Program-made: the position numbers and the translations under genes | Notes under the pieces: model-generated | Database searches by the model: none | Told to the model about the DNA's origin: nothing | What the model saw: the letters and a program-made list of their open reading frames with translations, nothing else | Part shown: piece by piece, positions 8,786-55,200 of the stretch | Numbering within the stretch: position 1 is the stretch's first letter | Layout: each line of letters starts with the position of its first letter | NCBI GenBank assembly: GCA_051294905.1 | Contig: CM119373.1 | Location: forward strand, 2,048,001-2,112,000 | Direction of reading: 5' to 3' | Source: Botryllus schlosseri | Lineage: Eukaryota | Length of the DNA stretch: 64,000 bases

Positions 8786-8953
8786 TTGCAAATGCTCGTT
8801 ATCATGGACAATTCAATGAATGAAGATGGATATGAAGTACTCGTTCACATTCTGAAGCGGTCAGATTGCAAGGAATTGCAACTCCAATATTGTTGTCTCA
8901 CCAAGACTAAGTTGCAAGGAGTATTGAACGGATGTCGGGATCAAAATATCCAG
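8786..8953 (+). CDS. Internal coding exon, two RI-like LRRs (LRR exon copy 1), probable NLR-like/LRR gene
   Basis: Acceptor ttttatcattttAG and donor CAG|GTGCGT; 168 nt open in phase 0: LQMLVIMDNSMNEDGYEVLVHILKRSDCKELQLQYCCLTKTKLQGVLNGCRDQNIQ, matching LxxLxIxxNxM and CxxLxLxxCxL. NLR assignment is inference. Confidence 0.8.
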
Positions 8954-11900
8954 GTGCGTCATCATGAAAAATCAGTAATATACAAGAAGACATGTCCCTA
9001 ACGATTCAAAATTGTTCGTCATCCTACATCGCCTCAAAAAGTATGCAGCATAAAATCGTTCACCGTTTATCCTGGCGTTTACCAATACTCGTCTGAGATT
9101 CGAATACCGCAGGCGTTTCGTATTTTGCAACACAGAGAAGCTTGTACATTTTTGAAATAGTTAACGACGCGACAGGGTGGATATTATCAATATTGGAATA
9201 TTCTTGAGACAAATCTAACTGGTGAGGCCGCTTTAGTGTTAGATGATGCGGTTCCATGCACCTGTTGTCGTGGCATGGAATTTGGGAATTCTAGACAAAC
9301 TGTTGCTGATGGAAATGCGGACAATAATTTGCGGCTTTGGTAAGGCGTCCCTGATCTACAGTGAAGTAATCGGCAGAAAAGGGCCAATGTTAAATTTAGG
9401 ATTTCAGGCCGCAAATTGGACACAATTTCATACTTTTAAGTTGCTTATAAATTTGGGTGGAGATAGTTATGTCAATCACTGATTGTCCAATTGGGAGGTC
9501 AAGAAATAACAGCATGCAATAAAAGTGACTAATAACAATTGGCCCACAGCATGATGCATCATTATATATAACTTGCCCCCCCCCCCCCCGGTTCGAAGAT
9601 ACCCCTCGATCAACTCTACTGGTGAATGGGATCACATGGGCTGAGAAAGGATTCATGCTTAATAGGAATATGTGAAACTGTTAACATTAATGACGAAATT
9701 CATTAGTGAATCTGAACAGCTTCTTGGAGCTACATAACTTCAATATCCGATTGAATAGTATATTCATACTGAAATGAACCCGAATATTTTCGGCTGACAC
9801 TCGTTAGGGGTAATCGTCAGCAACTAGTGGAGAATTCAAAAGAACAGCGTATATCAACAATCGTAACACAAAATATGACGTCACCAGCAGCATTAGTGAA
9901 TCTGGAAGTTTTTCGTTCCCATAACGTGACCACTCGCAATTTGGGTGCGTGTAGTAAGCGGATATGAAATAATATAGATAAGTCCGGAGCTCATCGGAAA
10001 TGGACATGGATCCCTCAATATTGGTAGTTGGCGTCCAGCTAGTTCATCGCGACTAAGCCCTGGAATGCTGCCGTAGGCTACATGATTAATCGATATGCAG
10101 CCGTGAATAGTAAAAAGGTTGGCGACCCCTTGGAAATGAATTCCAGCTAAGCTTTTCATTTAAGAGAGCTCGTTTCTCATGCACTTGAAATTCAAATCAT
10201 TCAAACTTTTTTTTATAATGGTGTCGAAGCATATACACTTATACAATCTTCCAGCGATTTCAATACCAATTGACAATATATATCAGTATTTTAATAATCT
10301 GTAATATGTATTGTGCTGCATCCGGAATATTTCGCGATCGGTATTTTTCGTTACATGTCGCTACATCTCTAATCGCAAAACCATGTATTCCAAGGCGCCC
10401 ATTGTAAAATGCCAACATGAAACAAGGTTTTTGTTATCGCTGGCCACAGCGTCAATATGGGTATGCAATGTATTTTTAAGTATGTCGTATTTGACGAGGT
10501 GAAATTGTTCGATTGAAGGTTAACCGAAATAGCAGACTGAGATTCCACAAATATCGTGACATTGTGATTTTCTATTTTTTAGCAATTTATGCGTTGCACG
10601 AATAAAAACCACATTCATGAATATTTGACTAGAACTGTCATTGTACTTGACAGGGAGTACGCGTCATTTGTCAAAATTATGAGAAATAGGCAACATAGCC
10701 GAATCTAGTTTTAAGATATCATATTGATAAGTATAGGCTATTGATTATGTCATTGCCCAAGTCAAAATAAAACAGCGTTGGATTTAACTTCACTGGTGTT
10801 ACAGCGGTGGAGCGTAGCACTACGGTATTCACCCTCTTATATCGGCGATAAAGATATGGATAAAGGGGACAAAGATGAAACTGACTACACATTCAGGGTG
10901 CAATAGAATGATCACTGTTGTTATAACAACTTGCGTCGATAGCGAAATACCGTGTCACGAGCTCAATTCCAATCAGTCGAAGCGGAGTTATTGCCGTCGC
11001 AAAATTTTGGATTTGAATAAAATAGTATTTACGGTGACCGATTCTTTAATCATTTATTATAATTGTGCCCACCGTAAATAGTATTTTATGCAAATCCAAA
11101 TTTGTCGACATCAATCACTACGCTACGGCTGGTTTGAATGGAGCCAAATTTGGTGGACATCGTTTCTATCGACAACCTTACAATTTCATGGGTGAACAGA
11201 AAATTTTGAATTTTTTTTTATCAATTCTGATATAATAAATAAAAAAACTTTCTTCTCCTGTAGCAATGCGGCTACTGGTTGGAATTGAACCAAATTTGGT
11301 GTGTAGGCTTCAATTCGGTAATCTAACAATTTTATCAAGTAGCCAGTAGAATTTGAAAGAAAAAGTCATTTTTGAACACCCCTACTGTACAGTGTACAGA
11401 CATTTGCTATTCCCATGCGCATAAGATGAACTATGATTTGATATTAACGGGTGTGAGTATACACCATGGCACAAGAGACCTGAACGTACCTCATACTTAT
11501 ACCGCGGTATAAATTGAGTGCAATATTTTAATCCAAATTTTGCATGCACGTAGGATATATGACCTCGATCTCATTATGACTCATGTTTTGTTTTCATGTA
11601 CCACCCTTTTCGGCCCCTTAGGTGCAAATACACACTATTTTCGCTAAAAGTGCACTCGAATAAAATATGCATGTTACGCATAAAACGCGTAGTATATTAT
11701 GCCCATTGGAAATCGGTGTCTACTCTACCAGTTGTAAACCCAAATGTACGAACGGGCAGTGCATTCATCGATTCGGTATCTCTAAAATTCCATTGTGAGT
11801 CAACAAACCTGACTGAAATACGAGGTCACTGCAAATTGGTCGATTGTCGCTTCATTGCGAAACATTCATTATTTTCAATGAAACATTCTTTCTTTGACGA

Positions 11901-12957
11901 TATAATCAGTGTTTTTCCAAATCGTAACGACCGTAAAAGCATTTCAGCACTATTACACGCGGCATTTTTCATTTCATCGCCGATATCCACTAATTGCATA
12001 TTAATATGAAATTCGCTAAAATATTCATTTATGCGAATGAGAATCTAGAGTTAGTGATCATTATGCAAAGGTGAATTGCAAGATATGGTCGGAAGTTTCA
12101 TCGCCCTTATTCTTGAATAGGCAACACAACTGTGAGAAGTCCATCCGTCTGAAGTATAATTATGCGGTCGTTTTCACAATAAAATATTTTAAATTGATAA
12201 TAATACAAACATCAAGTCAAGTGTTTAGATGTGCAAATCTGAATTTATTAGCTATGAAAATTCTGTAACCGAAAATATATAAAAAGGAACGATATTTATC
12301 ATGTTCCCAGCTATATTCGGATGAACTCTCGCAACTTTCGTATCTGATATCTTAAATTGGCTCATTAAACAAACGCTCTGTACGAATTCACATTCATATG
12401 ACGATAATCAACATATGCGACTCGTAGCTTACATTGTCGTAAACTTGCTTACCTCAACCAGCCCTCTTGTATATAATTTAAACCAAACGAATATCGTTCA
12501 TACGTTTATAATTGTATATCGTTGATAAGTAGGTGGGTAGGGTATTGAACTATATCAATTTTAAACATTCTGAGGTTTCGTATGTTGTCCTCTATTTTGG
12601 CTGATATTTAAAGACTGGCTACATCGCCATACTTGCGTAGTTGAGCAGTTCTGCGTATGCGTGAGCGATACAGCGCCTCTTCATTCCATTACTCCTCGCC
12701 ACTTAATCCGCGTAAGCCGTGACTTGCGCAAAGTCTAGAAGTGGGCCGTGCTATAAGTCGGCAGTTGACGAATAAATATGAAGAATATTGGCCTGGTGTG
12801 AATGGCCGTAGTAGTTGACAAACACCATGAATATCTCAAAACAAACAAACAAACTATTTATTCGTTCGTCGATTCCGAATAAATGGGTACTTCATCTGTA
12901 TTTAAAACAGTTAGCAAAATGTAATGACTTTGAATCATGTCCAGTACGTTGAAATTT

Positions 12958-13097
12958 CAACTTGACTTGACTAGTGACTTGACTAGTGACTTGACTAGTG
13001 ACTTGACTAGTGACTTGACTCGTGACTTGACTTGACTTGACTTGACTTGACTTGACTTGACTTGACTTGACTTGACTTGACTTGACTTGACTTGACC
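12958..13097. repeat. (CTTGA)n microsatellite with 12-mer TAGTGACTTGAC variant
   Basis: Directly visible; sister copy at ~52009-52051 is much shorter and lacks the 12-mers. Confidence 0.95.
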
Positions 13098-14199
13098 CGA
13101 GTCACCTTTGAAAATCAAGTGACTTGACTTGACTCGAGTCAAAATGAATTGGCAACAAAACGTTTCCATGAATCTCGACGAAGTCACAAAATCAATGTAG
13201 ATACAGGCCAATGGCACACAAAGGCAGACAAACGTTTACAGGGGATCCAAATATAAATAAGCAGTGGGACAGTATTGAATGCTTACACATCGGAATTGAA
13301 TACTATATTGTTCCACATAATTCCATCGTTAATAATTCAACGGTATGAAGTGTATGCTCGAGCAGTATAGCTAACCCGTCGCTTCCACAATTGCATGTCT
13401 TAAATTGATATTTATCCAAACTTCAAGTCAAAAATATGGATGTGCGAACCTGAATCTAGTAGCTATGAAATTCTAAATCCGATATTGATCGAATGAACCC
13501 TGCAAGATTGATATCTGAAATCGGTTCATCAAACAAACGGTATGTGCGAATTCACAATCGTAATATCGAGAATCAACATCTGTGACTTTTCAGTGTCTTC
13601 TGATGGGAGTGCAATTCTTCAAAAAATATCACAAACCATAACGTATTCTTTATTGTAGTCTTACCATAGCGGTACCCTATATAAAAAGATTGATGTGGCA
13701 ATTATACAATTCATTTTTTATGTCGAAACAATAATACACCGTGTCGACCGGCACTGATATCTTAAGCGTTTCGGCGTCGCGTGCATTCTACGTCATGGCA
13801 ATATGCCTATTCATACCAGCTGACTCTCCGTCGATGGAATGCTGATGCCTCCGTTGAAGCTATTTTCGCTATAGCGAGGAATAGTGTTGTTCAGGACAGA
13901 CGAATAAGTTTATTTAAAACTACAACAATAATAATTTGAAACTGAAATCATTTTCGCATTTCAAAATGCTTTATTCGCGTTCTTCCAAATTCACAGATCA
14001 GATCGCCGGCCGCAAAATACAACCTCGCGGGCCGCCTGTTGATGACCCCTGGTGTTGTGCAAAACGAGCAAAGCTTGATATACAGGCGTTAACCAATCTC
14101 TTTGTTATGAGACTCCATTGTGATTTGATATGAACTGAACTTTTTGCTGCATTTATTTCTCATTCAAATTTTCATTCGATTTCCAAGTTTTTCCGAATT

Positions 14200-14820
14200 C
14201 AAATTCTGATGCTAATTATAATCTAATTTGGAAAAAAGCTGTGTAGCTTTAATTCTAATTCTAATCTAATTTGGAAAAATTGTATAGCTCTAATTCTAAT
14301 TCTAATCTAATTTGGAAAAAGCTGTGTAGATGTAATTCTAATTCTATTATAATCTGGAAAAAAGCTGTGTAGATTTAATTCTAATTTTAATTTAATTTGG
14401 AAAATATGCATAGCTCTAATTATAATTCTAATATAATATGGAAAAAGCTGTGTGGATCTAATTCTAATTCTAATCTAATTTGGAAAAAGCTGTGTAGATT
14501 TAATTCTAATTTCAATCTAATTTGGAAAAATTGTATAGCTCAAATTATAATTATAATCTAATTTGGAAAAAGCTGTGTAGATCTAATTCTAATTCTAATC
14601 TAATTTGGAAATAACTGTGTTGATCTAATTCTAATTCTATTCTAATCTGAAAAAAAGCTGTGTAGCTTTATTTCTAATTTGAATCTAATTTGGAAAAATT
14701 GTATAGCTCTAATTATAATTCTAATCTAATTTGGAAAAAGCTGTGTAGATCTAATTCTAATTCTAATCTAATTTGGAAATAACTGTATAGCTCTAATTCT
14801 AATTCTAATATAATTTGTAA
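14200..14820. repeat. 41-42 bp minisatellite (CTAATTCTAATTCTAATCTAATTTGGAAAAAGCTGTGTAGAT), ~15 units
   Basis: Directly visible; shorter arrays at ~5433-5545, ~33490-33600, ~45860-45975, ~53170-53540; related variant at ~4400-4490 and ~32330-32510. Confidence 0.93.
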
Positions 14821-16296
14821 AAGCTTAAAAATTCTTAGTTGTCCAAGTAAGCGGTGTCATATAAAAGCATCAGTGGGCCTTGCAGCAAGTCAGCAGCTAC
14901 GGATTTTAAATGAAGCACATTGGCCAGGTGTAAATGACCATAGTATTCGACAAATCCCAAGATTACCTCAAAACAAACAAACAAGCGACTAAAAAGGGAG
15001 CATAAAAATACGCCAACTTCTATCGTCGTTACTGCCACTGATTTAGCGATCCATAACTGTACTCAACAGGCAAATCATCGCATTTTTGCCAATTTCATTG
15101 TTCGCGAATAAAGTCGTTGCTAGAATATAAACCCTATGATCCGTGATATGTTCTAATGTACTATTATGTATGTATATAATGATAGATAATAAAGTATTCA
15201 AGTGAAAATACGGACATGTGACAAAATCTTTAAATGAGTTGACTGATGGTCCGGCCTGTGAGAGATTTGAAGGTTTGCATCCGACCCGCGTCGCCTTTTC
15301 AGATTCACAATCCTGATCTAAGCTGAATCGCCATGACGAGATAGCATAATGGTATGATCCACGGCTGTAACACCAATTGGTTGCGGGTTCGATGCTGACC
15401 GAGGTCGACTCCAGAATTCCCAGCCAAGTGTTACAGATTTATCTAGGGCTATGCTCCTCTTTATTCACCAGATCAGCGGTAGTGGTTTCTTAAAAAAGCC
15501 TAGAAGTGGATCGTGCTATGAGTGCTCTCAATATTGCAGGCCCTGAGTATCTTCTGCACAGCGATCAATGTATATTTTTATAATTGAATGCCTCTTGGCT
15601 TTGCATTCAGGACAGTTTGTTTTACATGCAATCGAAATTTAAATCATTGGTAAAACAGAGTATATATTGCACACATTGTCTATTATAATATTTGAGATTC
15701 TATATAGTTGCTGAGTGACGTAAAGACCGAGTGAGTGTCTCACTTCGATTTCCCAAAAGTGTTTATGAATACTGGCTGAGTGCCGTAGAAACCCTATAGT
15801 ACTGTCTTTATTGAGTGATCATTAGTAAATTAGTAATCATAAAAACTGCATAACGGTATGCTTTAAAGTTGCCAAACACAGTAGACCTGCCGTCTCCGTG
15901 GATTCAATCGGACAGATTTACTTGCCGACATCCTGATGGCGACCACTTTTTGAAGGAGGAATAGATTGTTGTTATTCCAGTTAACAGAATTCAACGTCGA
16001 AATCAGCCAACACATATTTTACTCAGAGGACCGAGTTTCCAAATAATGTCAGCCAAATAGCTCATAGGTAATTTTACAAATTTCTGTTGTGTTTGAGTGT
16101 ATTCGATCAAATGAAATCTAGAACATTCTACTCGACTCGAAGATCAATTCTCGTTTCGAAATCGTATTTTCCGAGCCCTCGATTTCGCCCAGTCACAGTT
16201 GCAAGATTATGGTATTTTAAAGTCTACTGACAGTAATTTCGATTTCATTTTCGAAGCATAATAAAAGTCATTTTATCCGATATTTGATCATTTTAG

Positions 16297-16464
16297 TTGC
16301 AAAAGCTCGGAATCGTCGACAACTCAATGAAAGAAGATGGATATGAAATACTCGTTCACATTCTGAAGCTCTCAGATTGCAAGGAATTGGTGCTCCAAGA
16401 TTGTTGTCTCACCAACACCAAGTTGCAAGGAGTATTGAACGGATGTCGGGATCAAAATATCCAG
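16297..16464 (+). CDS. LRR exon copy 2 (168 nt, phase 0-0)
   Basis: tcattttAG|TTGCAA ... ATCCAG|GTGCGT; LQKLGIVDNSMKEDGYEILVHILKLSDCKELVLQDCCLTNTKLQGVLNGCRDQNIQ; no stop or indel. Confidence 0.8.
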
Positions 16465-18115
16465 GTGCGTCATCATGAACAATCCGTAATGTCCAATAAG
16501 ACATATCGTCCAACGATTCGAAATTGTTCGTCATCCTACTTCGCCTCTAATCCATGTAACATAAAATCGTTCACCATTTATTCTATCGTTTACCAATACT
16601 CGTCGGAGGTAATTCGAATACCGCAGGGGTTTAGTATTTTGCAACACAGATTACTTTGGACATTTTTAAAATTGTTGACGACGCGACAGCGTAGATATCA
16701 TCAATATAGGAATATTCATGACATAAATCTAGCCGAAAAGGCCGAAAGAGTGATAAAATTAGTTTTTAGGATTTTGGGCCGAAAATTGGGCACACTTTCA
16801 TACTTTTACGTTGCCTATAAATTAGGGTGGATAGAGCTATGTCGATTAATGATTGTCAACTTGGGAGGTCAAGAAATAACAGCATGCAACAAAGTGACTG
16901 ATAAAAATTGGCCCACAGCATGATGCACCATTATGCAAAACTTGCCCTCAGTTTTTGAAGACACCCCTTGATCAACTCTACCGGTGAATGCGATCACGGG
17001 GGCTGGAAAAGAATTAATGTTTGATAGGAATATGTGAAACTATCAACAATAATGACGAAATTCATTAGTGAATCTGAAAGTTTTTCGCACTTCGCGCGAT
17101 CATAACCGTTACCGTAACATGACCAATTGACCACTCGCGATTTCGGTGCCGGTGCGTGTAGTAAGCGAATATGAACTAATAGATAAGTCTGGAGCTCACC
17201 GGAAATGGAGATGAATCTCTTAACATCGGTATTTTGCATCCTGATAGTTCATCGCGACTATGCCATGGAATGTGGCCGCAGGCTACATGATTAATCGTAA
17301 TGCAGCCGTGAATAGGAGAAGGGTTTGCAACCACTGATTTACCCCTTGGAAATGAATTCCAGCTAAGCTTTTCATTCAAGAGAGCTTGATTCTCGTGCAC
17401 TCAAAATTCAAATAATTCATTTTTTTTCATCCCGGTGTTGAAGCATTTACAATTTACCAGCGACGTCTAAACTAGTCGACAATATGCAACAGTGTTTTAA
17501 TAATCTGGAATATGTAGGCTATTGTGCTGCATCCGGAAAATTTCTCGAGCCTTATCTTTCATTACGTGTCGCTATATATCTGGCCGCAAAACCATGTATT
17601 CCATGAAGCTCATTGTAAAATGACAGCATGTAACGAAGTTTATTTAAGCGCTGTTAACGAAACGACCGGTGGACGGTCATATTATCAGTATATATTATAG
17701 GATAATAGCCCACGTTAGAAATCTAACCACCAACGCCGACTGAGTAACGAAAATCAATTTAGTGTTTGATGTTTGACTCAAATGCACTCGGGGGCCAATT
17801 TCCAAATTTTTGACTACCCTGCGGAACACGACGTCAATATGGGTATTCAATGTATGTTCAAGTATGTCGTATTTGACGAGGTGAAATTGTACTATTGGCC
17901 GGAATAGCAGATTGAGATTCCGAAAATATAGTGAACTTATGATTTACTACTTATTTTACCAATTTACGCGTGGCACCAATGAAAACCACATACACAAATA
18001 TTTGACTAAAATTGTCGTTGTACTAGGCAGGGAGTACGCATCATTTGTCGCAATTATGAGAAATAGGCACCATAGCCGAATCTAGGTTTGGGGTACCATA
18101 TTGATAAGTATAGGC

Positions 18116-20108: not shown

Positions 20109-20439
20109 GTATAAGCTATTGATCTTGTCATTGCCCAAGTCAAAATAAAACAGCGTTGGATTTCACTTTACTGGTGTCACAGCGGTGGAGCGTGCCGCTG
20201 CGGTATTTGCCATCTTTAATCGGCTATAAAGCTATGGAATAAGGCAGTGGTTCTCAACCTTTTTGACTTCGCGGCACACTTTGAAAATGAAAAATAGTTC
20301 GCGGCACACTAGCACAGTGATTCTGAACTCTTTTGGCTTACGGCGCAGGCAAACTAACAGATTGCGTATAGCAGCAACCATATAGTCATACAGAGTTGGT
20401 CATGGTCACTGACGAAGTACTTCTACCTTTTTGGAACAC

Positions 20440-20640
20440 TCAAATAGGCTTTTCTCTGCTTGAGTTTTCTTTTATCTCTGCGGACATCTCTAAAATACGT
20501 CTTCGAATGGTATCATTTGACATGGGAATCGTTTTCGATTCTTCCCGAACATTTTTTACAATTTTATTGCAAGTTGGAAGAAGAACTTTCTCCGCTTCCG
20601 TGTGAGGTTTTGAATTATCAGCTATTACCTCTGTTACCAA
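20440..20640 (-). pseudogene. Buster/Charlie-like hAT transposase remnant
   Basis: KPHTEAEKVLLP...IPMSNDTIRRRILEMS matches the family motif KPHTIAE.LI.P...IPLS..TV.RRI..MS. Confidence 0.85.
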
Positions 20641-21788: not shown

Positions 21789-22117
21789 CAGGGTTAGCAT
21801 ACGTCATCCTTTTTCGGGTTTTTGAAAATGTCCTCCGAGGATGCCTAAATGTCCTCCTTTATGAGATTTTGTCCTCTTGTTTGAGAATTTTCATTAAACA
21901 TAGGGCAAAATGCGACCGAGATACCATAAAATAGCACTGAACTAACACTCAGGCGGGTATTTCGGGAGATTAGCGAAAGTTGACTTTTTTCTTTAGTCAA
22001 CCGACCACGAAGTGAAAAACATATACCATTTTTTCAGGATTTTCCACCGGTATTCTTGGTTTAGAAATTTTGAAAAAAAGTGTCCTCTTATCCCGGCTCC
22101 AGAATATGGTAACCCTG
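21789..22117. mobile_element. MITE nested in 20245-22378
   Basis: TIR CAGGGTTAGCATA / TATGGTAACCCTG, internal tgtcctc motifs; direct repeat CCTAATG (21782-21788, 22118-22124). Confidence 0.8.
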
Positions 22118-24761: not shown

Positions 24762-25119
24762 ATATTAGGGTATTGAAGCAAAATGTTCCTCATTTGAGGT
24801 GACCAGGGTGAAGTTAGCCCTCAACGATTTGGCCCTCAAATTAAAAATTACCAACTAAGATACTTACGACAGCATGAATCCAATGGATCACCATTTTTAA
24901 AATATCGACCATGATCTGTAAATCTCAAACGCCAAACGTAGTATTTTCATGAAATCAAATCAAAGCATTGGCCTGCAACAAACCTAGAATGATAATATTT
25001 TAGGGGTTGATTATGGTGATTCAACTTTTACTAAGGCATAACCTAATATATTTCGCTTGACGAATCAAACCCGATCTGCACAGCCCTCTGGTTACTTATG
25101 CCACCATTATATTTTTTTA

Positions 25120-27079: not shown

Positions 27080-27160
27080 CGAGGCTGCTAACCGTAGTTC
27101 TTCAGAATGATGTTCTGTATTCAATGTAGCATGTGCGTGCAATCTATGAGATAACAATTG

Positions 27161-43285: not shown

Positions 43286-46200
43286 ATCTAAGGTTTTAGT
43301 GGTCCGAAACCTAGTGAATCATGAAAATAAGTCTGGTGCCCCCCTATTTTAAGGGTGTAGTAAAACCCCAATGTGTAAGTGGTCGAAGTCCGCCTTCCGG
43401 TTAGGAATTCACTATTAGACCACTCGACTGATCAAGGGTATAATTTTTTTTGCTGTTTTCGGGATCAAATCCAGGTTGTTATAACAACCATCGGGTAAAA
43501 ACTACGGGCTCATAGCATTTGGTTCGAGATCGATGGACACATCTCGAATTCTCCTCTACGATTGCCAATACGGTGAATAAAGTTGTATTCGTTTCGTTTT
43601 ATTGCTTTGTGTGACCACTTAATCAGCTGAGAATGTTGTAGAGACTTGCTCACGTTACATTTAGCGCTGCTATTAAATTCAACATGAATGCGGGTAACAA
43701 CACTCAGCAGTATCATCCTTTATGATACGATTACGAAATATTCTGACGACATAATTTTGTAGCTCTCAAATACAAGTATATTTAGTTACTCGTTTTTGCC
43801 AGAAAGCTGCAAAACACCTTTAATGTACAAATGACATCACTCTCGAAAGTTGATCAGTAGCGTTTAGCGCCTTTGCGATTTAGGCACGCAGTGCGCATCA
43901 GGATAAAATACCTAGTCAAAAATATTTTATGTAAAACAACCCGAGCTATCAGTATAAGTATCAATTTATTAATATTTTCATCATTTCAAAACACCACAAA
44001 ACTTCGATACCATGAAAGGATAGGAAGATGTCAAAACTACTTGGAGTATAGCTAGCGTGACGGGGTTGTTATGAAGGGGAATAAGCAATCCAAAAGTACC
44101 CCAAATTCATTTTACATGATTTAAAATAAACCACTGCATTCATGGTATCATGAGTCGGTGGATATTTCGCGATGAGCGCGACTAAAAACGTTGTGATTTA
44201 ACAGATTTTGTCGAATGTTAGTTTGCAATGAGAAACCAGGAACAATCATATGTCCTTACTACACCATCTGCTGCGAGACCATTTTCTTCAGCGCCTCAAC
44301 CGCGTCCAGAGCCAAGTGCCCTCTATTTCGCCCCCTGAGCGTTTCCGCCCCTTCAAAATCCAAGTGGCTCCCTGGGAGGCGCTGGAGACAAGGTTAAGAA
44401 CCACTGATCTAAATCATCACGAACTATATTGGTAAAATTACGTCTCCTCCAGCTTCATAAACTGCTCATCTTCGACAGTACAATGCTCCCGGACGCATAG
44501 AAGAGTAGCGTACGACCAGTGTTGCTGATTATAAATTCTGTAGACGGAATTGGGCTCTGAGCTGTCGTAAGAAGTCGTCAGAAACAACATATACAAATGC
44601 GCGTGGTCGTGTTCGTGTGGTTTTTGCGCTATCACGAAGCAACTAACGATCCAGATTAAACGTTTAAATTCTAATCTTTTCCAAGTCTATATCATGGTAT
44701 CATGCTCAATCTTCTAGAATGATAGATACTTTTGTACTCAGCGCTTCTTCGGAAATTGTTTCAATCATCACACCCATCTCTGATCTGAACATATAAAGTG
44801 TCATCACCATGTTTGCATCTGCTTTAACAATAATCGAATTTTTGAATTGTTCTTATGCTCTAATTTTAATTCCAATCTAATTCATGAATTGTTCTTATGC
44901 TCTAATTCTAATCTAATTTATTGTTTTCCTGAAAATGCCTATTTGACCGCGGCATGTTGCAGCGAGTCCATCTCGCAAAGGGATATCCAGAGTCAAGCCG
45001 CAATTGCATTACTTACACCGTACAGAAATAGTAGTTGTTGTGCGACGAATAATAGCCATACTGGAACAATTGTGACGCTTATCGCCGAATCATGTTATTT
45101 GTGCCATGAAAATGAATGTTGCAATGTTCATTGATCTTTGCCTTTGGAACTCTTTTTGGACTACTTCCAGTCACGTATCTATTCATCATATATCTATCTC
45201 GTTTGCATACGACCTCTTCAGTGTCTTTTGCTGACGATTTTCGAAGCTCGAGTTCAATTATTTAAACTGGGCTTTTCGTACGGCACTGCATACGCAGTGA
45301 GTTCAGCTACTAACGATTCGATATTAGGGCTATCCAGACATGTTGCTAGGTGAAAGACTATCTCATCCTAAAGATTGGCTTTGGGGACGCCCTATAGCCC
45401 TAGTTTTCCAAGCGCCTCGGTGTCGAGTGCACTGTACGTCATGGCAATATCCCTATTCATGCCAGCTGACTCATCATCGATGGAATGCTGTTGCCTTCGT
45501 TGAAGCTATTTCCGCTATAGCGAGGAATAGTGTTGTTGAGGACAGACGAATAGGTTTATTTAATACAACAACAATAATTATTTGAAACTGAAATCAATTT
45601 TCGCATTTCAAAATGCTTTATTCGCGTTCTTCCAAATTCATAGATCAGATCGCCAGCCGCAAAATACGACTTCGCGGGCCGCCTATTGATGACCCGGGTA
45701 TAGTGCAAAACGAGCGAAGCTTGATATACAGACGTTAACCAATCTCTTTGTTATGAGACTCCACTGTGGTTTGATATGAACTGAACTTTTTGCTGTATTT
45801 ATTTCTCATTCAGAATTTCATTCGATTTCCAAGTAGTTTTTCCGAATTCAGTAGCCAAATTCTAATTGTAAGTATAATCTAATTTGAAAATAACTGTGTT
45901 AATCTAATTCTAATTGTGATCTAATTTGAAAAAAATTGTATAGCTCTAATTATAATTCTAATCTAATTCGGAAATGCTAAAAATTTTCTAGTTGTCCTAG
46001 TCTGCCGCGTAAGTGGCGTCTTATAAAAGCTTATGAGTGGGCCGTGCTGCAGGTATTGTTTGTTTGTTTGTTTTGGGGTATTCATGGTGTTTGTCGACTA
46101 CGATGGTCATTTACACCAGGCCGACATTCTTTTTATTTTCCGTAACTGCCGACTTATAGCACGGCTCACCTCTAGGCTTTTGTAAGACACCGCTGACGCG

Positions 46201-47189
46201 GATGAGGTGGCGAGGAGGAGCCTAGGTAAACCTCCAACACTTGGGTATCGAGATTCCCGTGCTGCAGGTCAGCAGCTACGAAATTTAAATGAAGCACATT
46301 GGCCTGGTGTAAATGACCATAGTAGTCGACAAACCCCATGAATACCTCAAATAAAACAAACAAGCGACTAGAAAGGGAGCATAGAAATACGTCAACTGAT
46401 ATCGTCGTTAGTGCCACTGATTTAGCGCTCCATAACTGTACTCAACAGGCAAATCATCACAATTTTGCCAATTCCATTGTTCGCGAATAAATTCGTTGCT
46501 AGAATATAAACCTTATGATCCGTGATATGATTTAATGTACTATTATGTATATATGATTGATAATAAAGTATTAAAGTGAAAATACGGACATGTGGCAAAA
46601 CTTTGAAACGAGTTGACAGATGGTCGGGCCCGTGAGAAATTTGAAGATTTTAATCCTACCCGAGTAGCCATTTGAGTTTGACAACCGTTCTCTAAGCTTA
46701 ATTGCGATGACGAGATAGCATAATGGTATGATCCACGGCTGCAACACCAATTGGTTGCGGGTTCGAGTCTGACAGAGGTCGCCTCCAGAATTCCCAGCCA
46801 AGTGTTAGAGGTTTATATAGGGCTAGGCTCCTCTTCATTCACCAGATCGGCGCTAGCGATTTCTTAAAAAAGGCTAGAAGTGGATTTTGCTATGAGTGCT
46901 CTCAATATTGCAGGCCCTGAGTATTTTTCTGCACAGCGATCAATGTATATTTTTAAAGTTAGATGCCTCTTGGCTCTGCATTCAGAACAAGTCGTTTTAC
47001 ATGCAATCTAAATTCAAATCATTGGTAAAACGGAGTATATATCGCACGACATTAAAAGCTGGCGATTTCGTCTATTATAACATTTGAGATCGACCGAGAC
47101 CGAGTGTTTCATTTCGATTTCCCAGAAGTGTTTATGAATACGGGCTGGGCACCGTTTAAACCCTAATATTGTCGTTATCGAGTGATCAC

Positions 47190-47510
47190 ATATTAAAATG
47201 GCTATCCGGACCACATATTAAAATGCTCCATCTCTAGGGTATTGAAAAAATCGGATACAGGTCCAAAATATGGCCCAGAAAAATGCCCGCCATTTTTGCC
47301 CCTACCTTGGCTAGGTAACGTGTCTAGCCGTTTTGAAAAGCTTATTAAATCGGCTGTTCACCGTTGCTATTACAGCGTTAACACGCATGCAGTGTACACG
47401 ACGAAACCCTTGTTACCCAACTCTCGAAAATATGTACTTCCTGCCTTTGATGCAAGTAATGTTGTTTACCAATACAAGTACCACTGTGATAGTAGGTATG
47501 TAGGATGTAC
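47190..47510 (+). mobile_element. Duplicate Penelope-like fragment truncated by a deletion
   Basis: Matches 6757-7077, then joins directly to the equivalent of 9928. Confidence 0.9.
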
Positions 47511-48776
47511 GACCACTCGCAATTTGGGTGCGTGTAGTAAGCGGATATGAAATAATATAGATAAGTCCGGAGCTCATCGGAAATGGACATGGATCTCTCA
47601 ATATTGGTAGTTGGCGTCCAGCTAGTTCATCGCGACTAAGCTCTGGAATGCTGCCGTAGGCTACATGATTAATCGATATGCAGCCGTGAATAGTAAAAAG
47701 GTTGGCGACCCCTTGGAAATGAATTCCAGCTAAGCTTTTCATTTAAGAGAGCTCGTTTCTCATGCACTTGAAATTAAAATCATTCAAACTTTTTTTTTAT
47801 AATGGTGTCGAAGCATATACACTTATACAATCTTCCAGCGATTTCAATACCAATTGACAATATATACCAGTATTTTAATAATCTGTAATATGTATTGTGC
47901 TGCATCCGGAATATTTCGCGATCGGTATTTTTCGTTACATGTCGCTACATCTCTAATCGCAAAACCATGTATTTCAAGGCGCCATTGTAAAATGCCAACA
48001 TGTAACAAGGTTTTTGTTATCGCTGGTAACGAAACGACCGGCGAACGGTCATATTATCAATATCTATTATAGGATAATAACTCATGGTATAAATCTAGCC
48101 GACTGAGTGAAGAAAATCGATTTAGTGTTTGATGCTTGACTCATATGTACTCGGGATCCAATTTCCTAGTTTTTGATCACCCCGCTGGCCACAGCGTCAA
48201 TATGGGTATGCAATGTATTTTTAAGTATGTCGTATTTGACGAGGTGAAATTGTTCGATTGAAGGTTAACCGAAATAGCAGACTGAGATTCCACAAATATC
48301 GTGACATTGTGATTTACTATTTTTTAGCAATTTATGCGTTGCACGAATAAAAACCACATTCATAAATATTTGACTAGAACTGTCATTGTACTTGACAGGG
48401 AGTACGCATCATTTGTCAAAATTATAAGAAATAGGCAACATAGCCGAATCTAGTTTTAAGATATCATATTGATAAGTATAGGCTATTGATTATGTCATTG
48501 CCCAAGTCAAAATAAAACAGCGTTGGATTTAACTTCACTGGTGTTACAGCGGTGGAGCGTAGCACTACGGTATTCACCCTCTTAAATCGGCGATAAAGAT
48601 ATGGATAAAGGGGTCAAAGATGAAACTGACTACACATTCAGGGTGCAATAGAATGCTCACTGTTGTTATAACAATTTGCGTCGATAGCGAAATACCGTGT
48701 CACGAGCTCAATTCCAGTCAGTCGAAGCGGAGTTATTGCCGTCGCAAAATTTTGGATTTGAATAAAATAGTATTTA

Positions 48777-50076
48777 CGATTACCAGAGAACCCGTCCCTT
48801 GGGGAACCCGTCCCTACCAACTCGGCCCTCGGAGAACCCGGCCCTTGGAGAACCCGGCCCTCGGGAAATTTTGCATATCAAGCACTCGTGGTCTACTTGT
48901 TGTCGTATTTACGGTGTTTTTCGACTACTCTGGACCTCGGAGAATGCGGCCCGCGAATAATTTTGTATTAAAAATGCATTAAATGTGAAGCCGGCCCTCG
49001 GGAAATATTGTATTCACCGGCAACCCTAATATCCCACCTCCACCAACCCTAATATCCCACCCCCGGCAACCCTAATATCCTAACCCTAACCCTAATATCC
49101 TCCCCCAACCCTAATATCCCCCTCCCCCAACCCTAATATCCCCCTCCCCCAACCCTAATATCCCACCTCCGGCAACCCTAATATCCCACCTCCACCAACC
49201 CTAATATCCCACCCCCGGCAACCCTAATATCCTAACCCTAAAGCTAATATCCCCCCCCCTACCCTAATATCCCCCTCCCCCAACCCTAATATCCCACCTC
49301 CGGCAACCCTAATATCCCACCCCCGGCAACCCTAATATCCCACCCCCGGCAACCCTAATATCCCCCTCCCCCAACCCTAATATCCCACCTCCGGCAACCC
49401 TAATATCCCACCCCCGGCAACCCTAATATCCCACCCCCGGCAACCCTAATATCCTAACCCTAACCCCAATATCCTCCCCCAACCCTAATATCCCCCTCCC
49501 CCAACCCTAATATCCCACCTCCGGCAACCCTAATATCCCACCTCCACCAACCCTAATATCCCACCCCGGCAACCCTAATATCCCACCCCCGGCAACCCTA
49601 ATATCCCACCCCCGGCAACCCTAATATCCCACCCCGGCAACCCTAATATCCCATCCCCGGCAACCCTAATATCCCATCCCCGGCAACCCTAATATCCCAC
49701 GCATGCCCTGACCTCCTTACAAGACCGACAAATCAGTTGATAATAACATTATTACTTTATTAATTCATATTAATACTTGTGAATACACTTAATTTCTAAA
49801 TTTCCCGAGGAATATTACTTTTCATTCAGTGTGCATGCCTCTTATTTACTTCGCCTAGGCTAAGGTGGGTGTCTGATCTTAATGGCTACTCCAAGTTGTT
49901 TCGACACCCTCCTATCTTTTCATTGTATCGCAGTCTTGTGATGTTTTGAAACGATGAAAATATTAATAAACCTGACTGACTGACTTCACCGAGGGCCGGG
50001 TTCTCCAAGGGCCGGGTTCTCCGAGGGCCGAGTTGGTAGGGACGGGTTCTCCAAGGGACGGGTTCTCCGGCAACCG
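48777..50076. mobile_element. Unclassified TIR element with 6-bp TSD and internal minisatellite
   Basis: ~90-bp TIRs CG(A/G)TT(A/G)CC(A/G)GAGAACCCGTCCCTTGG built of ~17-bp subrepeats; TSD TATTTA (48771-48776, 50077-50082); empty site 11026-11031. Confidence 0.9.
49016..49700. repeat. ~19-21 bp C-rich minisatellite (CCCCGGCAACCCTAATATCCCA) with telomere-like AACCCTAA core
   Basis: Directly visible, >30 units, including TAACCCTAACCCTAA at ~49081. Confidence 0.95.
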
Positions 50077-53000
50077 TATTTACGGTGACCGATTCTTTAA
50101 TCATTTATTACAATTGTGCCCACCGTAAATACTATTTTATGCAAATCCAAATTTGTCGACATCAATCACTACGCTACGGCTGGTTTGAATGGAGCCAAAT
50201 TTGGTGGACATCGTTTCTATCGACAACCTTACAATTTCATGGGTGAACAGAAAATTTTGAATTTTTTTTTATTAATTTTTATATAATAAATAAAAAAACT
50301 TTCTTCTCCTGTAGCAATGCGGCTACTGGTTGGAATTGAACCAAATTTGGTGTGTAGGCTTCAATTCGGTAATCTAACAATTGTATCAAGTAGCCAGTAG
50401 AATTTGAAAGAAAAAGTCATTTTTGAACACCCCTACTGTACAGTGTACAGACATTTGCTATTCCCATGCGCATAAGATGAACTATGATTTGATATTAACG
50501 GGTGTGAGTATACACCATGGCACAAGAGACCTGAACGTACCTCATACTTATACCGCGGTATAAATCGAGTGCAATATTTTAATCCAAATTTTGCATGCAC
50601 GTAGGATATATGACCTCGATCTCATTATGACTCAGGTTTTGTTTTCATGTACCACCCTTTTCGGCCCCTTAGGTGCAAATACACACTATTTTCGCTAAAA
50701 GTGCACTCGAATAAAATATGCATGTTACGCATAAAACGCGTAGTATATTATGCCCATTAGAAATCGGTGTCTACTCTACAAGTTGTAAACCCAAATGTAC
50801 GAACGGGCAGTGCATTCATCGATTCGATATCTCTAAAATTCCATTGTGAGTCAACAAACCTGACTAAAATACGAGGTCACTGCAAATTGGTCGATTGTCG
50901 CTTCATTGCGAAACATTCATTATTTTCAATGAAACATTCTTTCTTTGACGATATAATCAGTGTTTTTCCAAATCGTAACGACCGTAAAAGCATTTCAGCA
51001 CTATTACACGCGGCATTTTTCATTTCATCGCCAATATCCACTAATTGCATATTAATATGAAATTCGCTAAAATATTCATTTATGCGAATGAGAATCTAGA
51101 GTTAGTGATCATTATGCAAAGGTGAATTGCAAAATATGGTCGGAAGTTTCATCGCCCTTATTCTTGAATAGGCAACACAACTGTGAGAAGTCCATCCGTC
51201 TGAAGTATAATTATGCGGTCGTTTTCACAATAAAATATTTTAAATTGATAATAATACAAACATCAAGTCAAGTGTTTAGATGTGCAAATCTGAATTTATT
51301 AGCTATGAAAATTGTGTAACCGAAAATATATAAAAAGGAACGATATTTATCATGTTCCCAGCTATATTCGGATGAACTCTCGCAACTTTCGTATCTGATA
51401 TCTTAAATTGGCTCATTAAACAAACGCTCTGTACGAATTCACATTCATATGACGATAATCAACATATGCGACTCGTAGCTTACATTGTCGTAAACTTGCT
51501 TACCTCAACTAGCCCTCTTGTATATAATATAAATCAAACGAATATCGTTCATACGTTTATAATTGTATATCGTTGATAAGTAGGTGGGTAGGGTATTGAA
51601 CTATATCAATTTTAAACATTCTGAGGTTTCGTTTGTTGTCCTCTATTTGGCTGATATTTAAAGACTGGCTACATCGCCATACTTGCGTAGTTGAGCAGTT
51701 CTGCGTATGCGTGAGCGATACAGCGCCTCTTCATTCCATTACTCCTCGCCACTTAATCCGCGTAAGCCGTGACTTGCGCAAAGTCCAGAAGTGGGCCGTG
51801 CTATAAGTCGGCAGTTGACGAATAAATATGAAGAATATTGGCCTGGTGTGAATGGCCGTAGTAGTTGACAAACACCATGAATATCTCAAAACAAACAAAC
51901 AAACTATTTATTCGTTCGTCGATTCCGAATAAATGGATACTTCATCTGTATTTAAAACAGTTAGCAAAATGTAATGACTTTGAATCATGTCCAGTACGTT
52001 GAAATTTCAACTTGACTTGACTTGACTTGACTTGACTTGACTTGACTTGACCCGAGTCACCTTTGAAAATCAAGTGACTTGACTTGACTCGAGTCAAAAT
52101 GAATTGGCAACAAAACGTTTCCATGAATCTCGACGAAGTCACAAAATCAATGTAAATACAGGCCAATGGCACACAAAGGCAGACAAACGTTTACAGGGGA
52201 TCCAAATATAAATAAGCAGTGGGACAGTATTGAATGCTTACACATCGGAATTGTATACTATATTGTTCCACATAATTCCATCGTTAATAATTCAACGGTA
52301 TGAAGTGTATGCTCGAGCAGTATAGCTAACCCGTCGCTTCCACAATTGCATGTCTTAAATTGATATTTATCCAAACTTCAAGTCAAAAATATGGATGTGC
52401 GAACCTGAATCTAGTAGCTATGAAATTGATCGAATGAACCCTGCAAGATTGATATCTGAAATCGGTTCATCAAACAAACGGTATGTGCGAATTCACAATC
52501 GTAATATAGAGAATCAACATCTGTGACTTTTCAGTGTCTTCTGATGGGAGTGCAATTCTTCAAAAAATATCACAAACCATAACGTATTCTTTATTGCAGT
52601 CTTACCATAGCGGTACCCTATATAAAAAGATTGATGTGGCAATTATACAATTCATTTTTTATGTCGAAACAATAATACACCGTGTCGACCGGCACTGATA
52701 TCTTAATGTCTAATATAATGAAAATCGAAACCACTAAGAATAATATTGTTAAAATTTCGTCTCCACCAGCTTCAGAAACTGCCCATCTTCGACAGTACAC
52801 TACTCCCGGGTTCTTATTATGACGTGGCGGAAATTGCAAAAGCCACCAAATGCGCCGAAGTGTGTGTACCGAACCCAATTCCAACGTCCACGTTTACGGT
52901 TTAATCTCTTGTATTCTTACCAACGCACACTCGGGGTCAACATCCAGTGACGACTAAAAAGAGTGGTGGGATAGCATAGTGGTGTAATCCACTGCTGCAA

Positions 53001-55032
53001 CACCTATGGGTTACTGGTGCGAGTGCGAACAATTTCGACTCTAGAATTCCTAATTAAGCGTTGGAGGTTTAGCTAGGCTCCTCCTCGCCATCTCATACGC
53101 GTAACAGACTTGGACAACTAGATAATTCTAGTTGTCTAATTTCACTAAATTAGAGCGAAATAGCAGTAATCGAATTCTAATCTAATTTATAAAATTTTTC
53201 TATGCTCCAATTCTAATTCTAATTCTGATTCTAATCTAAATTGAGAAACGTTCTTATACTCTAATTATAATTATAATCTAATTTGGAAAAAGCTGTGTAG
53301 ATCTAATTCTAATTCTAATCTAATTTGGAAATAACTGTGTTGATCTAATTCTAATTCTATTCTAATCTGAAAAAAAGCTGTGTAGCTTTATTTCTAATTT
53401 GAATCTAATTTGGAAAAATTGTATAGCTCTAATTATAATTCTAATCTAATTTGGAAAAAGCTGTGTAGATCTAATTCTAATTCTAATCTAATTTGGAAAT
53501 AACTGTATAGCTCTAATTCTAATTCTAATATAATTTGTAAAAGCTTAAAAATTCTTAGTTGTTCAAGTAAGCGGGGTCATATAAAAGCATGAGTGGGCCT
53601 TGCAGCAAGTCAGCAGCTACGGATTTTAAATGAAGCACATTGGCCCGGAGTAAATGACCATAGTATTCGACAAATCCCAAGATTACCTCAAAACAAACAA
53701 ACAAGCGACTAAAAAGGGAGCATAAAAATACGCCAACTTCTATCGTCGTTACTGCCACTGATTTAGCGATCCATAACTGTACTCAACAGGCAAATCATCG
53801 CATTTTTGCCAATTTCATTGTTCGCGAATAAAGTCGTTGCTAGAATATAAACCCTATGATCCGTGATATGTTCTAATGTACTATTATGTATGTATATAAT
53901 GATAGATAATAAAGTATTCAAGTGAAAATACGGACATGTGACAAAATCTTGAAATGAGTTGACTGATGGTCCGGCCTGTGAGAGATTTGAAGGTTTGCAT
54001 CCGACCCGCGTCGCCTTTTCAGATTCACAATCCTGCTCTAAGCTGAATCGCCATGACGAGATAGCATAATGGTATGATCCACGGCTGTAACACCAATTGG
54101 TTGCGGGTTCGATGCTGACCGAGGTCGACTCCAGAATTCCCAGCCAAGTGTTACAGATTTATCTAGGGCTATGCTCCTCTTTATTCACCAGATCAGCGGT
54201 AGTGGTTTCTTAAAAAAGCCTAGAAGTGGATCGTGTTATGAGTGCTCTCAATATTGCAGGCCCTGAGTATCTTCTGCACAGCGATCAATGTATATTTTTA
54301 TAATTGAATGCCTCTTGGCTTTGCATTCAGGACAGTTTGTTTTACATGCAATCGAAATTTAAATCATTGGTAAAACAGAGTATATATTGCACGACATTAA
54401 TATTGCACACATTGTCTATTATAATATTTGAGATTCTATATAGTTGCTGAGTGACGTAAAGACCGAGTGAGTGTCTCACTTCGATTTCCCAAAAGTGTTT
54501 ATGAATACTGGCTGAGTGCCGTAGAAACCCTATAGTACTGTCTTTATTGAGTGATCATTAGTAAATTAGTAATCATAAAAACTGCATAACGGTATGCTTT
54601 AAAGTTGCCAAACACAGTAGACCTGCCGTCTCAGTGGATTCAATCGGACAGATTTACTTGCCGACATCCTGATGGCGACCACTTTTTGAAGGAGGAATAG
54701 ATTGCTATTATTCCAGTTAACAGAATTCAACGTCGAAATCAGCCAACACATATTTTACTCAGAGGACCGAGTTTCCAAATAATGTCAGCCAAATAGCTCA
54801 TAGGTAATTTTACAAATTTCTGTTGTGTTAGAGTGTATTCGATCAAATGAAATCTAGAACATTCTACTCGACTCGAAGATCAATTCTCGTTTCGAAATCG
54901 TATCTTCCGAGCCCTCGATTTCGCCCAGTCACAGTTGCAAGATTATGGTATTTTGAAGTCTACTGACAGTAATTTCGATTTCATTTTCGAAGCATAATAA
55001 AATTCATTTTATCCGATATTTGATCATTTTAG

Positions 55033-55200
55033 TTGCAAAAGCTCGGAATCGTCGACAACTCAATGAAAGAAGATGGATATGAAATACTCGTTCACATTCT
55101 GAAGCTGTCAGATTGCAAGGAATTGGTGCTCGAAGATTGTTGTCTAACCAAGACTAAGTTGCAAGGAGTGTTGAACGGATGTCGGGATCAAAATATCCAG
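55033..55200 (+). CDS. LRR exon copy 4 (168 nt, phase 0-0)
   Basis: tcattttAG|TTGCAA ... ATCCAG|GTGCGT; LQKLGIVDNSMKEDGYEILVHILKLSDCKELVLEDCCLTKTKLQGVLNGCRDQNIQ. Confidence 0.8.

Follow-up and report, generated by a model that had tools for sequence, protein, structure and literature searches.

Four short exons in a 64,000-nt stretch of the Botryllus schlosseri genome differ from one another mainly at amino acid positions that would line the concave face of a leucine-rich repeat (LRR) solenoid. The stretch, called the window here, covers positions 2,048,001-2,112,000 of contig 3 (C3) in a 495.5-Mb assembly. Each exon, referred to below as a cassette, appears from its sequence to encode two LRRs of the ribonuclease inhibitor (RI) type. 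Across the cassette copies of the genome, the predicted concave-face positions evolve with a ratio of nonsynonymous to synonymous change (omega) above 1, and the scaffold is under purifying selection; the caveats concern recombination, the implementation of the codon models, and the comparison with the downstream intron. An intact NACHT exon lies on the same strand, 119-173 kb upstream of the cassettes. We think it probable, with substantial room for doubt, that the cassettes are LRR modules spliced in series within a giant NLR-like gene, and that they were multiplied in tandem, reshuffled by gene conversion, and selected to differ on the concave face.

The four cassette exons

The cassettes of the window are as follows.

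8786..8953 (C3:2,056,786), + strand: exon 1, LRR cassette, copy 10 of 15 behind the third NACHT exon of the region; 56 codons, two predicted RI-type LRRs, phase 0/0
16297..16464 (C3:2,064,297), + strand: exon 2, LRR cassette, copy 11
37584..37751 (C3:2,085,584), + strand: exon 3, LRR cassette, copy 12
55033..55200 (C3:2,103,033), + strand: exon 4, LRR cassette, copy 13; flanks 97% identical to those of copy 11

Each exon is 168 nt long, preceded by ...ttttag and followed by gtgcgt. Exon 1 translates as LQMLVIMDNSMNEDGYEVLVHILKRSDCKELQLQYCCLTKTKLQGVLNGCRDQNIQ. Repeat finding and tblastn gave exactly four copies in the window, all on the + strand, and a tblastn search of the window with 22 proteins (the exon peptide and its 21 library matches) recovered these four exons only. 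Translation through the donor was considered and rejected. The open frames that follow exons 2 and 4 (208 and 199 aa) give unconserved sequence, and they are treated as chance because the corresponding frames of other copies close after 61-137 aa.

A strand motif, LxxLxLxxN/CxL, recurs every 27-29 residues, with alternating Asn-type and Cys-type repeats. Within a cassette, the Asn-type repeat comes first and the Cys-type repeat follows, which is the pattern of RI-like A/B repeats. All four window copies have the scaffold residues L1-L4-I6-N9-M11 and C28-L31-L33-C36-L38, which are invariant or at least 90% conserved in a 27-row alignment. A library-wide phmmer search with the exon returned 21 proteins at E<=0.001. 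These include the NACHT proteins P0004, P0011 (Death and NACHT), and P0005 (NLRC4-type helical domain, seven matched stretches), and the LRR_6-rich proteins P0007 (E 2.9e-10; Pfam LRR_6 7.9e-63) and P0013 (E 2.1e-6; LRR_6 4e-93). Relatives such as P0005 bear seven cassette-like modules in series. An AlphaFold2 model of the single exon, built from the 27-row alignment with the first residue read as M instead of L, has a strand at 2-6, a helix at 13-26, a strand at 28-33, and a helix at 40-52 (pLDDT 79.9). In a Foldseek search with this model, the human NLRP1 LRR domain ranks second (TM 0.58, 27% identity) at an E of 1.0, which is not significant. The exon would comprise two RI-type (Pfam LRR_6-like) repeats of 27 and 29 residues.

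The x residues of an LRR strand face the concave surface of the solenoid. In the two LxxLxLxxN/C strands of the cassette, these are codons 2, 3, 5, 7, 8, 29, 30, 32, 34, and 35. A preliminary description of the window had reported that amino acid variation among the four exons concentrates on these positions, and a codon table bears it out. Twelve of the 56 codons differ in amino acid (3, 5, 7, 12, 18, 25, 30, 32, 34, 35, 40, and 55). Seven of the 10 x positions are variable (3, 5, 7, 30, 32, 34, and 35) versus five of the 46 others, a concentration beyond chance (Fisher one-sided p = 3.1e-4). The multiple codon states that it listed were also found: GTT/GGA/AGT at codon 5, ATG/GTC/ATC at codon 7, CAA/GTG at codon 32, and TAT/GAT/AAT at codon 35. 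The scaffold residues are, as it had stated, unchanged among the four copies. Synonymous-only variation occurs at six more codons (9, 31, 38, 41, 46, and, between the second and fourth copies, 25).

Copies in the genome and their integrity

Peptide and DNA searches placed 25 copies of at least 90% nucleotide identity on contig 3 between 1,530,125 and 2,152,548, all on the + strand and spaced 0.9-120 kb apart. Two further + strand copies of 78-81% identity lie at 1,487,493 and 1,551,658, and three more copies occupy the - strand at 33.0-33.3 Mb. For the analyses below, 29 copies were retrieved, and the copy at 1,551,658 was left out. Carriage of the exon by a transposon was ruled out: the 27 copies at 1.49-2.15 Mb share a single strand and follow three NACHT exons, and a similar cluster at 33 Mb holds the only other close copies. 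That cluster (33.0-33.43 Mb, - strand) has two close NACHT exons (33,064,360 and 33,426,616), with cassette and D2-like exons (see below) 50-126 kb apart. Giant NLR loci of the cassette family would therefore not be limited to one region. More distant relatives form compact clusters with exon spacings of 0.6-2.5 kb, at 6.05-6.37 Mb, 7.18-7.25 Mb, and other places.

In all 29 copies the frame is open, the acceptor is AG, and the donor is GTGCGT. The single exon indel is an in-frame 6-nt deletion that leaves one 162-nt cassette. The flanking 300 nt on either side contain eight indel events upstream and 43 downstream; 36 of these 51 have lengths that three does not divide. The donor and the two bases after it are unchanged in 25 of 25 core copies; just 7.5% of the downstream columns are invariant, as are none of 284 six-column windows. 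On average, the exon has diverged by 7.6% and the flanks by 13-29%. Among the 25 close copies, the mean pairwise difference in the 46 non-x codons is 0.027 at codon positions 1 and 2 and 0.068 at the third position. The introns differ by 0.135 upstream (641 columns) and 0.288 downstream (295 columns), and exon third positions overall by 0.077.

Diversifying selection on the strand positions

The preliminary description had proposed diversifying selection from the four window copies. By themselves, these do not give dN/dS above 1 (Nei-Gojobori; 0.257/0.298 = 0.86 at x positions, 0.18 elsewhere). Site models on the 29 copies reject neutrality and select the very x sites that vary in the window (3, 5, 7, 30, 32, 34, and 35). 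These models were fitted with a Goldman-Yang-type likelihood program written for this analysis (F3x4 codon frequencies; topology and relative branch lengths fixed from IQ-TREE). On the exon tree, twice the log-likelihood difference (2dlnL) was 38.2 for M1a/M2a (p 5e-9) and 43.9 for M7/M8 (p 3e-10), and the top class had an omega of 4.5 and comprised 14% of sites. Posterior probabilities exceeded 0.9 at codons 3, 5, 7, 30, 34, and 35 and were 0.59-0.68 at codon 32. Codon 25 was picked out beyond the seven x sites (0.77-0.83). A tree built from the flanks of 25 copies gave 2dlnL values of 68.8 (M1a/M2a) and 71.9 (M7/M8) and an omega of 6.8-6.9, values that are inflated if the flank tree is wrong for the exon. 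When data were simulated under the fitted M1a model, 2dlnL was at most 1.05 in all nine data sets.

Partitioning the codons a priori gave an omega of 2.9-4.8 for the x positions and 0.44-0.50 for the rest. An omega of 1 at the x positions was rejected (p 2.7e-7 to 3.5e-12), and this remained so without the four window copies. The same contrast was obtained without a tree. In 25 copies, minimum state counts (distinct amino acids minus one per codon for nonsynonymous states, extra synonymous codons for synonymous ones), which are insensitive to recombination, were at least 34 nonsynonymous and at least 2 synonymous at x positions versus 24 and 14 elsewhere (binomial p 2e-4 against the pooled synonymous rate). 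Each hypervariable codon has four to seven amino acid states in the 25 close copies. On terminal branches, x positions underwent 48 nonsynonymous and 6 synonymous changes. By parsimony counts, the 46 non-x codons are under purifying selection (omega 0.31-0.35; p 3e-7 and 3.5e-5), also on terminal branches only (omega 0.36-0.39; p <= 6e-4). Diversity at positions 1 and 2 of the x codons (0.299; 0.416 for the seven variable ones) exceeds that of the upstream intron (0.135; p 5e-5).

A NACHT exon upstream and the layout of the array

A 257-kb region around the window was scanned with proteins and with a hidden Markov model (HMM) of the exon types. The resulting array, all on the + strand, reads as follows.

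C3:1,929,367-1,930,818, + strand: NACHT/winged-helix exon, open over 483 codons; Pfam NACHT 3e-13, 50.4 bits (cut-off 26.7); GEAGAGKST P-loop
C3:1,938,009, + strand: "D1", a diverged 168-nt LRR exon, after the NACHT exon
Between D1 and the first D2, + strand: cassettes 1-7, from the exon-type scan
C3:2,017,923, + strand: "D2", a second 168-nt LRR exon type, from the exon-type scan
Between the first and second D2, + strand: cassettes 8-13, of which 10-13 are the four of the window
C3:2,118,076, + strand: second D2 copy, with the same 56 residues as the first
Between the second and third D2, + strand: cassettes 14-15, from the exon-type scan
C3:2,162,870, + strand: third D2-type exon, found with the HMM of LRR exon types

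With a NACHT exon of the region as query, the close NACHT paralogues on the + strand of the region are at 1,422,300, 1,696,863, and 1,929,523 only, and no other close NACHT exon lies between the one at 1,929,367-1,930,818 and the window. At least 233 kb separate this exon from the last LRR exon identified. All cassettes are phase 0/0 and thus frame-preserving modular LRR exons. The D1 and D2 types are also 168 nt long, and the donors of the other LRR exon types are gtaagt or gtaagc. Strand, order, frame compatibility, and the architecture of paralogues suggest that the array may form one gene of at least 233 kb. More broadly, at least 27 copies, those at 1.49-2.15 Mb, probably encode the sensor ends of three very large immune genes of the NLR type.

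In compact paralogues, the same exon types follow a NACHT exon at intervals of 0.6-2.5 kb. These place a D2-like exon 2.5 kb after a cassette-like exon, and the ancestral unit was therefore probably a two-exon module. A stretch related to the first 32 codons of D2 also occurs in the window.

52770..52865, + strand: relic or short exon of 96 nt, in frame, with borders ccag|...|gtaccg; related to D2 codons 1-32

Six copies of this stretch, with identical 32 residues, are present in the 257-kb region, the others between C3:1,977,089 and 2,122,498. Five of the six sit 2.3-3.8 kb upstream of a cassette. The stretch may be either a truncated relic or a short single-repeat exon, and its copies carry no evolutionary signal either way.

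Two sister arrays follow the other two NACHT exons of the region. One of them lies 249 kb upstream, where the NACHT exon at 1,696,863 is followed by seven cassettes of the same family up to 1,820,231, over 124 kb. The window belongs to a distinct and larger array, which spans at least 233 kb and comprises 15 cassettes and three full D2-type exons. In the 1-kb flanks, exon 1 differs by 0.4% from the cassette at C3:1,812,552, which is part of this sister array, follows another NACHT exon, and lies at a distance of 244 kb. Exon 1 together with 1 kb of its flanks differs by 0.4-0.7% from this copy and from that at 2,033,580, 23 kb upstream. Such near-identity is the mark of very recent long-range duplication or conversion, or of assembly duplication. 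By these sequence comparisons, the cassettes of the two arrays appear still to exchange sequence.

Proposed origin and function of the cassettes

The four exons would be LRR cassettes in the sensor-encoding 3' part of a very large NACHT-LRR gene. Spliced head to tail, each would add two turns to an LRR solenoid. The array grew by repeated tandem duplication of exon-plus-intron units of 7-20 kb, some copies of which are still 98-99% identical, and was then modified by gene conversion or unequal exchange among cassettes. Selection retains the splice sites, an open frame, and a scaffold of hydrophobic, Asn, and Cys residues, and it would favour amino acid differences at the concave-facing strand positions 3, 5, 7, 30, 32, 34, and 35. 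Each repeat could thereby present a different patch of a presumed ligand-binding face. The copies and their intactness, the selection signature, the same-strand NACHT exon, and the traces of duplication and conversion are established here. We infer that all cassettes are spliced with the NACHT exon into one mRNA, that the protein is made, and that its variable face binds ligands.

Evidence against the proposal and alternative explanations

A number of observations weigh against this proposal, beginning with expression. Four bulk RNA-seq runs with the same species label were sampled (1.1-1.9 Gb from each, 6-13% of the run) and compared with positions 8500-16700 of the window. Depth was 0 over exon 1 and approximately 0.07 at exon 2 in one run, and no joint was seen at either exon. 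Between 145 and 476 reads were placed per run, all on dispersed repeats. Read pile-ups occur at 9596-9900, 11240-11500, and 12610-13157, with a summed depth of up to approximately 48 in one run; they come from other transcribed repeat copies and not from this locus, because 98-99% of the reads extend into unlike sequence. A search of indexed RNA runs for window positions 8000-17000 returned no match. The result of the four runs is weak evidence against strong expression in the sampled runs, since the samples are small and their tissue is unstated. Likewise, a collection of 5.8 billion clusters contains no protein of 99-2000 aa that has three 5-residue words in common with it. The preliminary description had gone as far as diversifying selection on a functional recognition surface. 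Its selection part is supported by the site models, the partition, and the tree-free count. The word "functional" goes further than the results, as exons 1 and 2 had no reads in the four RNA runs and no annotated protein contains the cassette.

The gene model and the family assignment also meet contrary results. No exon junction was seen, so that the reading of the array as one gene depends on strand, order, and analogy. The 3' end of the gene was sought and not found: beyond 2,162,870 and up to 2,182,000, the HMM of exon types gave nothing reaching E 1, and tblastx against 4 kb of a compact paralogue gave only the 2,162,870 exon and stop-bearing repeats. Pfam gave no LRR match at E<=1 for the 56-aa exon, because the exon is too short. 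The best PDB match of the exon profile is ribonuclease inhibitor at an E of 0.12, in register over several repeats, and Foldseek with the exon model returned no match at E<=0.001.

Other contrary points concern selection itself. The codon models are a simplified implementation of our own and are neither codeml nor HyPhy. Measured by parsimony against their own 4.9 synonymous sites, the x positions have an omega of 1.2 (exon tree) to 1.95 (flank tree), which is not significant; against the pooled synonymous rate it is 1.75-2.9. Diversity at x positions (0.299) is not above that of the downstream intron (0.288; p 0.39), and when the x pattern is slid over the flanks, 12.6% of placements reach the x diversity. 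With its 43 indel events, the downstream alignment is both mosaic and of low quality, and therefore the argument rests mainly on the interleaved silent sites of the exon. In the most recent pairs (8/10 and 13/14), the exon shows no excess of differences. Moreover, exon and flank distances are uncorrelated (r 0.09), and cassette 9 differs from 11, 13, and 14 at 15-17 nt within blocks whose identity is 97-99% to either side. These observations show that recombination has occurred, and it can inflate site-model tests. The segment in cassette 9 looks like a conversion patch, in which two to five of the differing codons are synonymous only. High-identity blocks often start 88 bp before the exon or stop approximately 29 bp after it.

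These last patterns lead to an alternative that we consider unlikely, namely concerted evolution, in which conversion homogenises the exon and selection rejects only those conversions that would erase older repeat-specific surface residues. The apparent omega above 1 would then reflect old differences on a young background, with no repeated adaptive change. Besides the uncorrelated distances and the patch in copy 9, this explanation accords with exon third positions that are less diverse (0.077) than the introns on either side, with the identical exons at 1,820,251 and 2,002,881 despite flanks 5.3% apart, and with combinations of first-strand and second-strand residues that are mosaic across copies. 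However, the variable codons 3, 5, and 7 alternate with the conserved codons 4, 6, and 8. Conversion tracts cannot spare one set of single alternating codons and not the other, so that silent changes within the exon give a fair reference (omega 2.9-4.8). The four to seven amino acid states per hypervariable codon and the excess of nonsynonymous changes at x positions on terminal branches also speak against it. Even if true, concerted evolution of this kind would remain selection for diversity of the face.

It is improbable, in our view, that the cassettes are relics, that is, unused copies stranded in the duplicated introns of a decaying locus, too young to have decayed and with variation inherited from functional ancestors. 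The lack of RNA reads on exons 1 and 2 in the four runs and of the cassette in any predicted protein would fit this explanation, as would introns of 7-20 kb crowded with satellites and transposon fragments, several units that are merely 1-2% diverged, and the truncated 96-nt version of D2 present six times. Yet decay is not what the copies display: 29 of 29 are intact despite the divergence of exon and flanks given above, and 600 flanking nt have accumulated 51 indel events versus one in-frame event in the exon. The donor is unchanged in all 29 copies, and scaffold codons retain an omega of 0.36-0.39 on terminal branches.

Just as doubtful is the idea that the symmetric exons are used in alternative or mutually exclusive combinations, with one giant gene yielding many receptors. 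Any subset of phase 0/0 cassettes would stay in frame, the uniform GTGCGT donor is slightly weak beside the gtaagt/gtaagc of other LRR exon types, and LRR exon skipping is documented for human NLRP3 (PMC6642158). Nevertheless, the four sampled runs gave no RNA evidence for such a choice, and relatives carry modules of this kind in series. A search for docking and selector sequences, in which the 10.5 kb that follow the NACHT exons were compared with the 800-nt flanks of all 15 cassettes on both sides, gave only chance-level complementary matches of 12-17 nt (E 0.1-0.4). A more far-reaching version, in which each of the three giant loci serves as a germline library whose LRR modules are interchangeable and whose receptor faces are drawn by regulated exon choice or cassette exchange, strikes us as a long shot. 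Serial splicing of the cassettes into a giant NLR-like protein remains the interpretation that we prefer.

Duplication units and other repeats of the window

The window is AT-rich eukaryotic DNA (37-46% G+C). Self-alignment resolves it into tandem segmental-duplication units of approximately 18.5-21 kb, with boundaries near 17340, 37779, and 56236 and blocks that are 95-99% identical.

1..17340, + strand: unit A, tandem segmental duplication with its start approximately 4 kb upstream of the window; includes cassettes 10 and 11
17341..37779, + strand: unit B, more diverged; 163-bp satellite, Harbinger-type transposase fragment, and copy 12 at its end
37780..56236, + strand: unit C, 18,459 bp; carries copy 13

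A further unit, D, begins at 56237 and is 98.4% identical to unit C across 7.8 kb. Unit A matches later sequence in three blocks: 1-7077 with 41779-47510 (99.1%), 9928-13765 with 47511-52706 (97-98%), and 14498-19181 with 53216-58111 (95-97%). Exon 1 sits in a 2.85-kb piece (7077-9928) that is missing from the otherwise 98-99% identical unit C (junction 47510/47511).

A 1.34-kb stretch of unit A (1864-3205) is missing from the 99% identical copies at 43643 and 62105 and is probably a recent insertion. Conversely, approximately 1.3 kb (48779-50075) is found in unit C and not in the 98% identical unit A, where 10438-11033 corresponds to 48183-48778 and 11025-13037 to 50076-52089. This segment contains a C-rich 23-bp tandem array (49017-49700, unit CCGGCAACCCTAATATCCCACCT) with strong negative GC skew, flanked by mutually reverse-complementary 16-bp arrays (48786-48861 and 49992-50068), and looks like an inserted element with terminal inverted arrays. 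The 163-bp satellite of unit B has 12 copies at 25122-27068, followed by 4.3 inverted copies at 27161-27853. Positions 24802-25820 match 28173-27155 in inverted orientation at 97.7%, and the satellite array is therefore a head-to-head palindrome within unit B.

A 42-bp AT-rich minisatellite (TCTAATTCTAATTCTAATCTAATTTGG...) occupies 14205-14822 and 53218-53545, in each case 1.5-2 kb before an exon (2 and 4, respectively). It also forms shorter runs at 4401, 5432, 32331, 33489, 44832, 45861, and 63294, and the copy number is unequal among the duplicated units. The intron before exon 3 holds a frameshifted DDE transposase fragment of the PIF/Harbinger type (35328-35770; Pfam DDE_Tnp_4, 1.1e-14). 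A Pfam scan of 45 of the 60 window open reading frames of at least 90 aa gave only this fragment and one sub-threshold match; the other 15 are satellite frames, the exon 4 read-through frame, and frames mostly in the duplicated units C and D. The remaining DNA of the window consists of satellite, minisatellite, and repeat sequence.

Relation to known systems

A diversifying LRR face is textbook knowledge for plant NLRs, and the LRRs of animal NLRs are often viewed as autoinhibitory or invariant. In plant NLR and Cf-type LRRs, diversifying selection acts on the solvent-exposed residues of xxLxLxx. The cassettes resemble plant NLRs in that omega above 1 is confined to strand x positions with a conserved scaffold, and in their tandem arrays with duplication and intergenic exchange. 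They differ in that plant LRRs are of a plant-specific class and mostly encoded in one exon, the plant comparison spans paralogous genes or alleles and not the exons of one gene, and plant NLRs have NB-ARC instead of NACHT. In lampreys, many flanking LRR cassettes are copied somatically into an incomplete germline VLR gene. The B. schlosseri arrays likewise have many LRR-encoding cassettes with variable concave-face residues. Unlike the lamprey cassettes, which are not spliced exons, all 29 have canonical, conserved ag/gt sites, and none of the data point to somatic assembly.

Among vertebrate NLRs, human NLRP3 has frame-preserving 171-nt exons that encode two alternating RI-type LRRs (28 and 29 residues), with exon skipping demonstrated (Hoss et al., 2019; PMC6642158). 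The cassettes share with NLRP3 a short frame-preserving exon with two LRRs, the exon border at the same point of the repeat, the position of LRR exons after a NACHT exon, and an exon design that allows gain, loss, and skipping. In contrast, a cassette has 168 nt (27 and 29 residues), its introns are 7-20 kb long (0.9-120 kb over the three arrays) compared with approximately 1 kb in NLRP3, and 15 near-identical cassettes with 84-99% amino acid identity are found in one array. The cassettes, which are known from genomic DNA, also show strong omega above 1 at strand positions, a feature that the available portion of the NLRP3 report does not mention. In the zebrafish NLR-B30.2 family, the B30.2 domain is described as varying and the LRRs as not particularly variable (PMC4852459), in contrast to the cassette arrays.

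The fungal NACHT-WD40 genes het-d, het-e, and NWD have near-identical repeats that exchange within and between genes, with four positively selected surface residues per repeat (Paoletti et al., 2007; PMC1805685). Common to these proteins and the putative cassette proteins are NACHT, highly similar repeats, few diversifying residues on the interaction surface, and repeat exchange. The fungal repeats, as described there, are WD40 and not LRR and are head-to-tail units with no multi-kilobase introns; repeat-induced point mutation (RIP) is proposed as a mutator, and a function in allorecognition has been demonstrated. The fungal NACHT-WD family is a closer match in selection pattern than plant NLRs.

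Significance

The theme is known from the diversifying faces of plant LRRs and the hypervariable repeats of fungal NACHT-WD proteins. What is new is the variant: an animal NACHT family that diversifies at the level of exon cassettes, which have multiplied along with their introns to give loci of 124 to more than 233 kb. A literature search, judged from the search results alone, found no paper on tunicate NLR LRR cassettes. Giant cassette genes of this type are a warning for annotation, as gene finders overlook them altogether: the large collection has no predicted protein with the cassette. If the module library sketched above were true, its receptors could serve pathogen or self/non-self recognition in a chordate without antibodies, as a spliced counterpart of fungal NACHT-WD repeats and lamprey VLR cassettes. 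If expressed, the cassettes would offer a tractable case for how an invertebrate chordate enlarges its innate recognition capacity and for whether exon-modular LRRs are put to combinatorial use.

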